Source of the DNA: Escherichia phage JK1
Length of the DNA stretch: 64,000 nucleotides
Direction: 5' to 3' (one strand)
Sequence record: MZ436830.1
Below, in pieces: positions 2,429 through 6,747 of this stretch. A program made the translations under genes and the position numbers. How positions within the stretch are numbered: position 1 is the first letter of the stretch; every line of letters starts with the position of its first letter. Under the pieces are notes generated by a model. The model did not search any database. It saw only the letters and a program-made list of their open reading frames with translations, and was not told where the DNA came from.

Positions 2429-2458
2429 ATTATACCACATCCTTGTGGTAAAGTAAAC
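2429..2458 (-). promoter_or_regulatory. early promoter (GTTTAC-N18-TGGTATAAT)
   Basis: -35 at 2458..2453, extended -10 at 2434..2429. Confidence 0.6.
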
Positions 2459-4278
2459 TACTGGCTCATCCATTCTTTACGAAGGTCAGCGTTATCTCCC
2501 ATGAGCATTTCAAAAAGCTCTTTCCAGTTCTCAGGAAGTTTAACAACATCATATACTGGGTTTTGAATCATCTCACGATATTCAGATTTTTCCAAAGAGC
2601 CAAGTCCCTTAATATAACGGATGCTATGTTTAGGTAGAGCATCTTTGGCACTCTCATATTCAGCGACTGTATAAAACCATTCTTGTTTTTTACCGACCTG
2701 AGCGATGATTACAGGAGTTTTGACGAAGCGAATTCGTCCTTGCTCAAACAATTCTGGCCAATTACTAAAAAACCCGAGCAGAGAAGGATAAATGCTTCCT
2801 AGACCATCATGGTCAGCATCGGTCATAATAGCAATATTATGATAATTCAAGTTTTCAGCTTTTTCACCAAGAACTAATCCAGTGATTGCGCAAATATCAA
2901 ACAGTTCTTTGTTTTTAAGCATATCAGCATATGACATACCCCAACTGTTGAGAACTTTACCACGCAATGGATAACCACCATGAAGTTCTTTATCACGAAC
3001 ATCAATAAGATATCCGATAGCAGAATCACCCTCAGTCAAGAAAAGAGTAGTATCAGCATCTTTACCACAAAGATTCGCTTTGATATGTTTATGAACCTTA
3101 GCTTTAGAAGCCTTTTTAGCTGCTTTAGTTTCTGCTGCTTTTTCTGCTGCCAATTTACGGGCCAAGGCAGCTTCAATAATCGGCATTAAAATTGCTTCAT
3201 TATTTAGAATAGCGCGTGAAATCTTTTTAGCATCAAGTTGAATATGACTACGAATTTCACCAAAAGGAGAAGTAAGTCGTTCTTTAGTTTGAGAATCAAA
3301 TCGCATGTTTTTCATATCACGGACAAACATAACGATAGTCAAACATTCTTTAACGCGTGCTTTAGTTACATCAATTTTGAACTTACGTTTGATTTGTGGA
3401 ATAAGGTCTTCACAAATATCATCCATAACACAGTCAATGTGATGGCCACCATTCTTAGTGTGAATGTTATTCACATAAGTTAATTGGCGAAATCCATCCG
3501 GTGAACGACCAACCGCAATAGAACAATTTTCTTGTTCTTGAACAATAGCATGTTCATCATACTGTCGTGCATATTTCTTAAAATTGCCCTGAACCTTTTT
3601 ACCATTAAAGGTAAATTGAATATCAGGATAAACAACAGCAAGTGTCTGGAGACGATCTAGTGTAATGTCAAGATAAACTTGGGACAGCTCATTAGTTTCA
3701 AATGACATAAAATCAGGAATGAAAGTAACACGGGTTCCTTTCCATTTTCCTGGAATAGTTTCCCATGATTTATTTTCCATGCCATTTGAACAACGAACTA
3801 CAATATTATTTTGACCATCGCCAGTTTCACCGACAAACATCACAGAAAAAATGTTAGTTAAACTAGAACCAACACCATTCATACCACCGGTGACACGTTC
3901 TTTATCATCACCGAAGTTACCACCCGCTTTTGGAATAGTCCAAGCAGCAACTGGACCAGGAATTTCTTCACCGGTAGGTGTTTTAACCATCGCTTGTGGA
4001 ATACCGCGACCGTTATCTTCAACTGTTACCTGATTATTTTTAATGGTAACATTAATTTTATTCGCGAATTTAAACTTAGTACGAATACCTTCATCGACTG
4101 AGTTATCGATAATTTCATCAATAAGCTTAACAAGACCAGGTACATACTGAACACTTTCCCATTTACCAAACAGAAAGCGCTCATGCATTTCATTAGCAGA
4201 AGAGCCAATATACATGCCGCTACGCTTTTTGATATGTTCAATATCGCTCAGAATTTTAATTTCATTCTTAATCATCAC
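2458..4278 (-). CDS. 39: DNA topoisomerase II large (GyrB-like ATPase) subunit, uninterrupted 606-aa form
   Basis: N-terminal GHKL ATPase motifs (VEDNGRGIP) and TOPRIM-like C-terminal part in one ORF. Confidence 0.9.
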   Translation of the reverse strand: MMIKNEIKILSDIEHIKKRSGMYIGSSANEMHERFLFGKWESVQYVPGLVKLIDEIIDNSVDEGIRTKFKFANKINVTIKNNQVTVEDNGRGIPQAMVKTPTGEEIPGPVAAWTIPKAGGNFGDDKERVTGGMNGVGSSLTNIFSVMFVGETGDGQNNIVVRCSNGMENKSWETIPGKWKGTRVTFIPDFMSFETNELSQVYLDITLDRLQTLAVVYPDIQFTFNGKKVQGNFKKYARQYDEHAIVQEQENCSIAVGRSPDGFRQLTYVNNIHTKNGGHHIDCVMDDICEDLIPQIKRKFKIDVTKARVKECLTIVMFVRDMKNMRFDSQTKERLTSPFGEIRSHIQLDAKKISRAILNNEAILMPIIEAALARKLAAEKAAETKAAKKASKAKVHKHIKANLCGKDADTTLFLTEGDSAIGYLIDVRDKELHGGYPLRGKVLNSWGMSYADMLKNKELFDICAITGLVLGEKAENLNYHNIAIMTDADHDGLGSIYPSLLGFFSNWPELFEQGRIRFVKTPVIIAQVGKKQEWFYTVAEYESAKDALPKHSIRYIKGLGSLEKSEYREMIQNPVYDVVKLPENWKELFEMLMGDNADLRKEWMSQ

Positions 4279-4302: not shown

Positions 4303-4330
4303 ATTATACTCCAGTAATCATAAAGCTAAA
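4303..4330 (-). promoter_or_regulatory. putative middle promoter for gene 39 (MotA-box-like AGCTTTA + TATAAT)
   Basis: box about 12 nt upstream of TATAAT. Confidence 0.35.
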
Positions 4331-4345
4331 GGCCCGAAGGCCTTT
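4328..4345 (-). terminator. GC hairpin with UUCG loop between lipoprotein gene and gene 39
   Basis: GGCC-UUCG-GGCC. Confidence 0.35.
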
Positions 4346-4615
4346 TTATTTAAAACGAATAGTTGAATCCTTAAAGAACAGCCCAGAACATACTGTTCCT
4401 TCTACTTTCTGCCCGGTAGGTCCAACAGCACGAAATCCAGTATGTTGGAAATCATTTTCAGAGCAACCGAACCAGTTATATCCAGTGATTTCAATATTCG
4501 TAAAACCACTTGATGATAAAATTTTAGTTGCATTATCAGCATCAGTACATCCTACTAAAGATACTGCTAATACTAATGCTGCGATAGAACGATTAATATA
4601 TTTCATAATTTTCAC
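4346..4615 (-). CDS. predicted lipoprotein
   Basis: signal peptide followed by lipobox LVGC. Confidence 0.55.
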   Translation of the reverse strand: MKIMKYINRSIAALVLAVSLVGCTDADNATKILSSSGFTNIEITGYNWFGCSENDFQHTGFRAVGPTGQKVEGTVCSGLFFKDSTIRFK

Positions 4616-4989
4616 TTAAATTTAATAGCTTGAAGAAGACTAATAATTCTCAAGCGACTTCTTTCATCTTTAACTGTAAAGGAAAGAGAGTCGCCAGATT
4701 TCATGGTAATAGTGCATTCAAAATCAAAATCTTCTGTGACTTCTTCGAAGAAGTCAAATTCTTCAGCATAAATTAGAACATTACTCTGCATACTGTGAAG
4801 AATTTTTCCGTTATTTCCAGACGCTGTACTAATCATCGTAACATTATGACCTTTCATATCTTCAACGATAAATTCGCTTGTAGATATTACAGCATTAATA
4901 GAACCATTCCTATAAATAGCAGACATTAGATATTTCTTTTCTTCGCCTTCGCGAATACGATATTTCTTACCGATTTTAAACATAATCAC
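4612..4989 (-). CDS. hypothetical protein
   Basis: 125-aa ORF, start overlaps stop of upstream gene. Confidence 0.5.
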   Translation of the reverse strand: MIMFKIGKKYRIREGEEKKYLMSAIYRNGSINAVISTSEFIVEDMKGHNVTMISTASGNNGKILHSMQSNVLIYAEEFDFFEEVTEDFDFECTITMKSGDSLSFTVKDERSRLRIISLLQAIKFK

Positions 4990-5015
4990 CCTTTAAGTAA
5001 ATCGTAAAAACCACC

Positions 5016-5162
5016 ATTCACATGCTTAGGAGCAGAAGGCCGACGAGTAGACAAACGATGACATTTAGGGCAAACATCATTTTCTCGTTCAGAAATCTTT
5101 TTAATTTTTTCATATTCATGCCCGCAATCTTCGGATTGGCATTTATAATCATACATTGGCAT
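5016..5162 (-). CDS. small zinc-ribbon protein (FmdB-like, MPxYxYxCxxCGH...CPxC)
   Basis: 48-codon ORF below the track cutoff; AAGGA SD 5 nt upstream of ATG; two CxxC pairs. Confidence 0.5.
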
Positions 5163-5164
5163 AA

Positions 5165-5584
5165 TTATTCCTTAAAGTGAGCTTTCAACATCTGATACAA
5201 GGACCATGCCTGTTCATTATTTTCAATAGTAACTTTCATGACTGGGAATTCTGTGAAATCTTCTATTTGTTCTTGCTCTTCCTGCTCTTGTTCTTCAGCT
5301 GCTTGGTATGGATTTTCCACTTCATCAAAGAATTCAGCTTCGCTAGTAGAAAGCCAAATAAAATCTTCATCCAAAATATCTTTACCGGAGGATAATGCCA
5401 ATCTTCCAGTAGATGTCACAATTTTAGTAGGACGACCAAGATAGTCAATATCTATAACTTTAAAAGGTTCCATACCTAAACGTCGTGCATAAATTCCGTT
5501 TTCAGTATGGTCTTTAATAAAAGCTTCTTGAGCTTGTTTATTTTTAAATTGATACCATTTATTGACTTCAAATCTAATAGCCAT
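5165..5584 (-). CDS. hypothetical protein with acidic [10 protein letters not shown] tract
   Basis: 139-aa ORF. Confidence 0.5.
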
Positions 5585-5799
5585 TAATAAATTTCCTTCC
5601 AGTAAGTTGTACCGTCTTCAGTGATTTCACGGAATACACCATAAATCGGTTGTTTATCACCAACCTTTTCATACACATAAACCGAAGTCAAGTGAGTAAA
5701 CTTGATGGTGTGTTCCTTTTGAACTACTACCAAATCTGGATCGAATAATACATCTTCAAATTCGTCATTAGTGCAGTTCTGAACAATTTTACGTTTCAT
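5584..5799 (-). CDS. hypothetical protein
   Basis: 71-aa ORF; stop/start overlap with neighbour. Confidence 0.45.
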
Positions 5800-5812
5800 T
5801 ACAATTTCCTCA

Positions 5813-6082
5813 TTAATTGAACAGTGGAGCGATGCGTTTCAGAAGAGTAGCAGCACCTTTGGCAAATTTTACATCATGAAAAACAGTTTCTTCTTCTGTA
5901 ACAACTCGAACTTTAATATTTTCACAATCCCAATTTTTACGAACAATCTTCAAAAGCTGCAGTAAATCTTTACATTCAGCAATATCGATAACACATCCAC
6001 GAGAATCTTCCATTATCGCACGATAACCGTAAGCCATACCATAATCGTTAAAAGATTGCTCGATGATAATTAAGTTTTCCAT
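5813..6082 (-). CDS. hypothetical protein
   Basis: ATG preceded by GGAG; track start is an upstream TTG extension. Confidence 0.5.
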   Translation of the reverse strand: MENLIIIEQSFNDYGMAYGYRAIMEDSRGCVIDIAECKDLLQLLKIVRKNWDCENIKVRVVTEEETVFHDVKFAKGAATLLKRIAPLFN

Positions 6083-6717: not shown

Positions 6718-6747
6718 ATTATACTCTGGTCCCAAGAGTTTGTAAAC
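6718..6747 (-). promoter_or_regulatory. early promoter
   Basis: GTTTAC-N18-TATAAT. Confidence 0.5.

Follow-up and report, generated by a model that had tools for sequence, protein, structure and literature searches.

Two members of the FmdB/Zn_ribbon_8 family of small zinc-ribbon proteins have been characterized, Gp39.2 of bacteriophage T4 and Ruc (Rv0991c) of Mycobacterium tuberculosis, and both act in protein folding, since modulation of GroEL is reported for the first and chaperone activity for the second. The phage gene was reportedly first selected from RB69, and its homologs in T4, RB43 and RB49 are said to act alike. As relayed in two later papers, one of them (PMC5153855) by the senior author of the original study, T4 Gp39.2 (NwgI, 58 aa) shifts GroEL to an open, co-chaperonin-binding state (Ang & Georgopoulos, Genetics 2012, via these papers). 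According to the same account, the open conformation favoured by Gp39.2 takes both host and phage co-chaperonins, and 39.2 is required for growth of T4 on certain groEL mutants, the deletion phage failing to grow on specific groEL hosts (PMC5153855).

Ruc binds one zinc through four cysteines, as measured by ICP-MS; the C-terminal half of the protein is disordered, and on oxidation and loss of zinc it becomes a holdase chaperone that works with DnaK (PMC7448276). Both regulation and gene neighbourhood tie it to the chaperone network: ruc is co-regulated with hsp60 and hsp70, and ruc-type genes lie next to those for DnaK/DnaJ/GrpE/ClpB and, in some phyla, for GroES/GroEL (PMC7448276). Among Ruc homologs the C-terminal tail ranges from 7 to 61 residues (PMC7448276). 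We found no paper that links Gp39.2 with Ruc, and the paper on Ruc names neither phages nor 39.2 (PMC7448276).

We analysed a stretch of 64,000 nucleotides of Escherichia phage JK1 (MZ436830.1), referred to hereafter as the window, which is of Tequatrovirus origin. A sequence-only reading of the window had proposed an unannotated zinc-ribbon gene of 48 codons at 5016-5162, preceded by an AAGGA Shine-Dalgarno sequence. The small gene had been recognized correctly, with faulty coordinates and length. An ORF encoding the translation that was quoted (MPMYDYKCQSEDCGHEYEKIKKISERENDVCPKCHRL...) exists; it lies on the minus strand, which had been left unsaid, with its ATG at 5162-5160, and the AAGGA is found at 5173-5169, 6 nt before that codon. 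The reading frame comprises 58 codons rather than 48 and ends at a TGA at 4988-4986; the triplet at 5018-5016, taken as its end, is an AAT (Asn) codon and no stop. The product of 58 residues is MPMYDYKCQSEDCGHEYEKIKKISERENDVCPKCHRLSTRRPSAPKHVNGGFYDLLKG. The gene cannot be called unannotated in general, because tblastn located the protein in 885 phage records of several genera (215 of them at 99% identity or more), where it is usually annotated, as gp39.2, as zinc ribbon domain protein or as FmdB-like transcriptional regulator. The features of the region are collected in Table 1.

Table 1. Features of the gene 39.2 region of JK1, in window positions, and zinc-ribbon-GroES gene pairs of jumbo phages, in positions of the respective locus
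Feature	Coordinates	Strand	Basis
Gene 39.2 ortholog, CDS, 58 codons + TGA	4986..5162	(-)	ORF list, identity, dN/dS
Shine-Dalgarno AAGGA, 6 nt 5' of ATG, within 3' end of goF	5169..5173	(-)	sequence
Zinc-ribbon domain, residues 1-41, N-terminal MPxYxY	5040..5162	(-)	PF09723, TIGR02605, AF2 model
Cys codons C8, C13, C31, C34	5141-5139, 5126-5124, 5072-5070, 5063-5061	(-)	
C-terminal tail, residues 42-58, motif APKHVNGGFYD	4989..5039	(-)	phage ortholog conservation
GGFYD, residues 50-54	5015-5001	(-)	
goF, upstream neighbour	5165..5584	(-)	phrog_622, goF families; synteny as T4, T4T, RB69
GoF-family paralog, downstream neighbour, 123 aa from ATG 4983	4612..4983	(-)	phrog_622, E=9e-29
Sigma-70-type promoter match TTTACA-17-TATAAT, 11/12, 5' of motB (candidate)	6718..6746	(-)	consensus scan
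Zinc-ribbon-GroES pair, L009	2501-2994		
Zinc-ribbon-GroES pair, L010	2501-3017		
Zinc-ribbon-GroES pair, L042	687-1194		
Zinc-ribbon-GroES pair, L043	687-1194		
Zinc-ribbon-GroES pair, L044	667-1185		
Zinc-ribbon-GroES pair, L045	696-1182		

The JK1 ORF is the ortholog of T4 early gene 39.2, since goF lies on one side of it and the 39.1/39 genes on the other. On the minus strand motB comes first, followed by an unnamed ORF, cef, goF, 39.2, an ORF of 123 aa, a 39.1-like gene and gene 39; the arrangement 39 <- 39.1 <- (39.2) <- goF <- cef <- motB agrees with that of T4, T4T and RB69. The position of 39.2 is also that found in Kha5h, the closest DNA match for the region around the ORF (97.6% identity), and many Tequatrovirus genomes match the surrounding 1.6 kb at 95-98% identity. 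Homologs of 39.2 lie 5' of the topoisomerase gene in RB49 (Krischvirus), RB43 (Pseudotevenvirus) and Yersinia phage TG1 as well. JK1 Gp39.2 is 81% identical to the T4T protein (58 aa) and 91% identical to the RB69 protein (59 aa). It has the length of T4 Gp39.2 (58 aa), its place after goF and before 39.1/39, its zinc ligands and its C-terminal GGFYDLLKG; 11 of the 58 residues differ, as in CGHEYE in JK1 against CAKEYE in T4 or STRRPS against AVRLVS. Gene 39.2 is thus already known: it has been characterized experimentally in T4, and it is conserved and usually annotated.

The gene is tightly packed between its neighbours, as is typical for T4 early gene clusters. The TAA stop of goF (5167-5165) precedes the ATG of 39.2 by 2 nt, at the junction TAATTATG, and this is mirrored on the other side, where the downstream gene begins 2 nt past the 39.2 stop, at the junction TGATTATG. 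The Shine-Dalgarno AAGGA and the start-codon stretch of 39.2 are identical in T4 and Kha5h, and the goF/39.2 junction is likely to be a case of translational coupling. Because the 123-aa ORF downstream belongs to phrog_622, as goF does, paralogs of the GoF family (LSm-like fold) flank JK1 39.2 on both sides. The second paralog, between 39.2 and 39.1, distinguishes JK1 from T4: the T4 and T4T gene maps have no counterpart at that position. In the RefSeq record of Kha5h, a stretch of 379 nt homologous to it carries no annotation.

The assignment of the product to the FmdB-type zinc ribbons, made in the sequence-only reading, was borne out by the profile search that had been suggested with it, in which residues 1-41 scored above the cut-offs of two curated models, Pfam Zn_ribbon_8 (PF09723; 45.7 bits against a cut-off of 34.4, E=6.7e-12) and NCBIfam TIGR02605 (FmdB family, CxxC_CxxC_SSSS; 44.9 against 31.3). 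The protein also matches phrog_1076. The ligands lie in two knuckles, C8-x4-C13 followed by C31-P-K-C34. Relatives were collected by a word-indexed protein search, which gave 7 close ones, and by an exhaustive phmmer search, which gave 155; a scan of loci with the single protein yielded 30. When 33 phage and bacterial relatives were aligned, M1, Y6, C8 and C34 did not vary, and P2, Y4, C31 and G51 were each kept in at least 90%; the 89 homologs taken from the phmmer search all have M1 and C34, with P2, Y4, Y6, C8, C13, C31 and P32 each conserved in at least 90%. The four cysteines, whose lack of conservation in related phages would by the sequence-only reading have been a refutation, are accordingly retained, C8, C31 and C34 being invariant or nearly so and C13 being Cys in at least 90% of the 89 homologs. 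In the homologs that lack C13, the second ligand is His (CxxH, for example in RB49) or a Cys lying one or two positions away, or the knuckle is CxC, and in RB43 and the Vequintavirinae it is the third ligand that is displaced, a CxC knuckle replacing CPxC. Four potential zinc ligands are always present, since a His or a shifted Cys fills the variant positions. From this pattern of residues, JK1 Gp39.2 is predicted to bind zinc.

With the FmdB family JK1 Gp39.2 has in common the N-terminal MPxYxYxC, the second knuckle CPxC and a Gly-aromatic motif after the ribbon. It differs in its first knuckle, Cx4C where the family has CxxC, and in missing the Ser/Gly-rich low-complexity C-terminus of the family, the 'SSSS' of the TIGRFAM name: the JK1 tail, STRRPSAPKHVNGGFYDLLKG, has no Ser-rich run and stops 4 residues past GGFYD. 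The Ser-rich region is not needed for the domain call, because TIGR02605 is a model of the kind 'subfamily_domain'. The motif that follows the ribbon in the phage clade, APxx[VI]xGGFYD, aligns with bacterial KGSGFYxTDY.

In an AF2 model built on an alignment of 89 sequences, pLDDT averaged 81.9. Four short strands (residues 3-8, 16-20, 28-30 and 37-40), as expected of a zinc ribbon, reach pLDDT around 90; the tail (residues 41-58) has pLDDT of 63-67 and includes a short helix at 52-55. A Foldseek search of the PDB with this model gave no match at E<=0.001, and its non-significant matches were generic ribbons, among them the MCM N-terminal domain, RbpA, Rpo12 and ribosomal proteins. When the PDB sequences were searched with a profile, just generic ribbons and spurious matches to tandem C2H2 proteins came back, so that neither search revealed a solved structure of a family member in the PDB. 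Since the structural matches are generic and non-significant, the fold confirms the term 'zinc ribbon' and provides no functional clue.

By homology with the T4, RB69, RB43 and RB49 proteins, JK1 Gp39.2 is most likely an early protein that modulates host GroEL toward engagement with GroES or gp31. Gp39.2 is built of two parts, the zinc ribbon (1-41) and a short flexible tail carrying GGFYD (42-58), and it would push GroEL toward the open form that binds host GroES or phage gp31. GroEL-dependent phage proteins, such as the major capsid protein, could then fold despite a suboptimal host chaperonin. The GroEL phenotype is that of the T4 ortholog in the literature; its extension to the JK1 allele, the mode of contact with GroEL and any role of the GGFYD tail are ones that we infer.

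Genomic support for a chaperonin-linked role comes from jumbo phages, which provide the most distant tblastn matches to JK1 Gp39.2. In the RaK2-like phages 121Q (Asteriusvirus), RaK2 (Alcyoneusvirus), GAP32 (Mimasvirus), XaC1 (of Xanthomonas), fHe-Yen9-04 (of Yersinia) and fENko-Kae01 (of Klebsiella), the homolog lies directly 5' of the phage's own GroES/Cpn10 gene; the GroES next to it scores 66.6 bits with Cpn10 (PF00166) in fENko-Kae01 and fHe-Yen9-04. The homologs are 66-69 aa long and score 33.9-41.7 bits with PF09723, five of the six passing the cut-off of 34.4 and that of RaK2 (33.9) falling just below it. They are 29-38% identical to JK1 Gp39.2 (for example 121Q gp614 and GAP32_261) and share with 39.2 an EKIxKI..RE stretch, present in all of them, and the unusual first knuckle C-x2-E-[ED/x]-C, for which XaC1 has CxxC. 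Their tail, FTPGDKG...GNWF..TGGY, differs from that of 39.2. The zinc-ribbon gene of these phages is often misannotated as 'type I antifreeze protein', and in single records as a sigma factor or a terminase.

With a DNA query spanning both genes, the pair was contiguous in 69 of 70 records, at identities down to 64%; the hosts in these 70 records were Escherichia, Klebsiella, Salmonella, Erwinia, Yersinia, Pectobacterium, Serratia and Xanthomonas. As the jumbo phages form a single, though diverged, clade, their pairing amounts to one observation, conserved over a long time. It is independent support and offers a second system in which the role could be studied. The pairing was seen in jumbo phages only: no GroES gene was found beside the T4-like copies or beside 30 copies on viral contigs, and in T4-like phages 39.2 and gene 31 are far apart.

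A wider proposal, which we put forward tentatively and which may well not hold, is that the 39.2-type ribbon is a dedicated chaperonin accessory and that the FmdB/Zn_ribbon_8 family as a whole, whose members many genome records label 'regulatory protein', consists of proteostasis co-factors, with GGFYD/GSGFYxTDY as the candidate chaperone contact. If this were true, the genetics of T4 Gp39.2, the jumbo-phage pair of zinc ribbon and GroES, and Ruc would converge. What is new lies beyond the gene itself, in the unexploited link between Gp39.2, the jumbo pair and Ruc, and in the misleading label that the family carries.

The kinship with Ruc could also be read differently. Gp39.2 might be a stand-alone holdase of the Ruc type, in which oxidation or some other trigger frees the zinc and the unfolded protein binds non-native clients and passes them on to DnaK or GroEL; on that view the genetics with GroEL would reflect, indirectly, an altered client load. 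The two proteins belong to the same Pfam family: residues 1-49 of Ruc, which we rebuilt from published primers with X at 5 positions, score 49.4 bits on Zn_ribbon_8. Both consist of a four-Cys Zn_ribbon_8 ribbon followed by a tail, which in the JK1 model is of lower confidence, and in Ruc the zinc held by four cysteines is lost when the protein becomes a chaperone (PMC7448276). A tail of 17 residues, as in JK1, falls within the range of 7-61 residues seen among Ruc homologs (PMC7448276). The two tails nevertheless seem unlike each other, that of Ruc being about 60 residues long, variable, hydrophilic, disordered and needed for holdase activity, whereas that of JK1 has 17 residues, is conserved in sequence and contains the strongly conserved GGFYD. 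Overproduction of T4 Gp39.2, which is reportedly lethal, would fit a holdase. The partners differ as well: Ruc works with DnaK and is switched by oxidation, whereas T4 Gp39.2 is described, in the account of it given in PMC5153855, as acting on the conformation of GroEL, with a block limited to specific groEL mutants. The identity between Ruc and JK1 Gp39.2 is just about 22%. We therefore regard a Ruc-like holdase as unlikely and retain modulation of GroEL as the preferred reading.

The annotation as a regulator leads to another alternative, in which the ribbon binds DNA, RNA or RNA polymerase and alters early expression. Many RefSeq records and phrog_1076 carry this label, zinc ribbons are frequent in nucleic-acid machinery, the weak structural neighbours of the model include the RNA polymerase subunit Rpo12, RbpA and the MCM zinc domain, and RNA or transcription is the target of the neighbouring genes goF, cef and motB. 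None of the structural matches, however, reached E<=0.001, and with the Pfam and TIGR02605 profiles no DNA-, RNA- or RNA polymerase-binding domain other than the ribbon was found above threshold in JK1 Gp39.2. A literature search for an experimentally studied FmdB-family transcription factor, or for DNA or RNA binding by a member of the family, returned annotation-level mentions only. The label 'FmdB-like transcriptional regulator' derives from the name of the family; some genome records annotate Ruc itself as an FmdB family regulator. The label clashes with the sole functional data for the family, in which both studied members work in protein folding, and we found no experimental basis for it. 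The jumbo phages, moreover, pair their homolog with GroES and not with transcription genes. A regulator acting on nucleic acids is on these grounds very improbable. The sequence-only reading had suggested a small nucleic-acid- or protein-binding regulator; the first half of this finds neither a domain nor a paper on the family to stand on, whereas the vaguer 'protein-binding' fits the modulation of GroEL that has been reported for the T4 ortholog.

The transcript of T4 39.2 belongs to the early class (PMC9697503, Table S2), and by analogy JK1 39.2 is probably transcribed early. The strong sigma-70-type match 5' of motB (Table 1) is a candidate early promoter for a transcription unit that would contain 39.2, and the Kha5h record annotates a host-like promoter directly 5' of motB. 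Promoter assignments in the region are mere suggestions, because the scan was not enriched over shuffled sequence (8 promoter-like sites found, 9.6 expected). No T4 39.2 protein was detected in a time-resolved proteome (PMC9697503).

JK1 39.2 is a genuine coding gene under purifying selection. When 21 distinct DNA alleles of Tevenvirinae were compared pair by pair, dN/dS had a median of 0.05 and the variable sites were distributed over codon positions 1/2/3 as 11/11/38; the same calculation gave dN/dS of 2.27 and 1.89 in the two shifted frames. That the ORF is instead a chance frame or a pseudogene remnant in AT-rich intergenic DNA, with no product, a reading to which the frequency of short ORFs, the 44-aa and 52-aa ORFs overlapping the same stretch, the truncated 45-aa form in the T4 reference and the failure to detect the protein in one T4 proteome might be taken to point, is effectively refuted by the contrast in dN/dS between this frame (0.05) and the others (about 2), and its residual probability is negligible given the curated profile cut-offs passed, the conserved Shine-Dalgarno sequence and start codon, the 885 phage records from several genera, the confinement of the 45-aa form to the old T4 record and the deletion phenotype relayed for T4 39.2.

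Of the two overlapping ORFs, that of 44 aa on the minus strand (5018-5152) was rejected because same-strand shifted frames give dN/dS of about 2, and the 52-aa ORF on the plus strand has no supporting evidence. Two database entries (P0005 and P0007) jump after CP.. into the 44-aa frame (...NVIVCLLVGLLLLSM). The frame that they enter has no coding signal, and the switch most likely reflects frameshift sequencing errors in these records.

The 45-aa form stems from the T4 reference NC_000866 (locus L002, 5702-5839), in which 39.2 is annotated with a different C-terminus. The discrepancy is a single base, an extra T in GCTTCC, to which several substitutions are added; deleting the T restores the 58-aa frame, ending ...APKHGNNGFYDLLKG. 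Re-sequenced T4 genomes (T4T HM137666, where the gene is at 601-777 of locus L041, MT984581, KJ477684-6 and others) have the 58-aa frame intact, and four residues of their Gp39.2 are not those of the old sequence after repair. Since these genomes encode an uninterrupted protein of 58 aa, the length also given in the literature and found in JK1, the old T4 record is erroneous here. UniProt Q01434 is tied to the 45-aa annotation at 5702-5839 (PMC9697503, Table S2), and the wrong entry may explain why the protein was missing from T4 proteomics. A reference form that is truncated and partly erroneous can mislead both proteomics and homology work.

Further along the cluster, the 39.1-like ORF (4346-4615, minus strand, 89 aa, phrog_902) starts MKIMKYINRSIAALVLAVSLVGC, which resembles the signal peptide of a lipoprotein, L-V-G-C being the lipobox. 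Between this gene and gene 39 is a perfect 7-bp G+C-rich hairpin (4328-4345), reading AAAGGCC-TTCG-GGCCTTT on the minus strand with a loop of the UUCG type, and a TATAAT occurs about 25 nt further downstream; the hairpin may be an RNA-stabilizing or partial terminator element before a gene 39 promoter. The T4-specific split of genes 39 and 60 (mobA, 60.1 and the translational bypass of gene 60) is absent from JK1, whose topoisomerase large subunit is encoded at 2458-4278 (minus strand) by one ORF of 606 aa in which genes 39 and 60 are fused, as in RB69.
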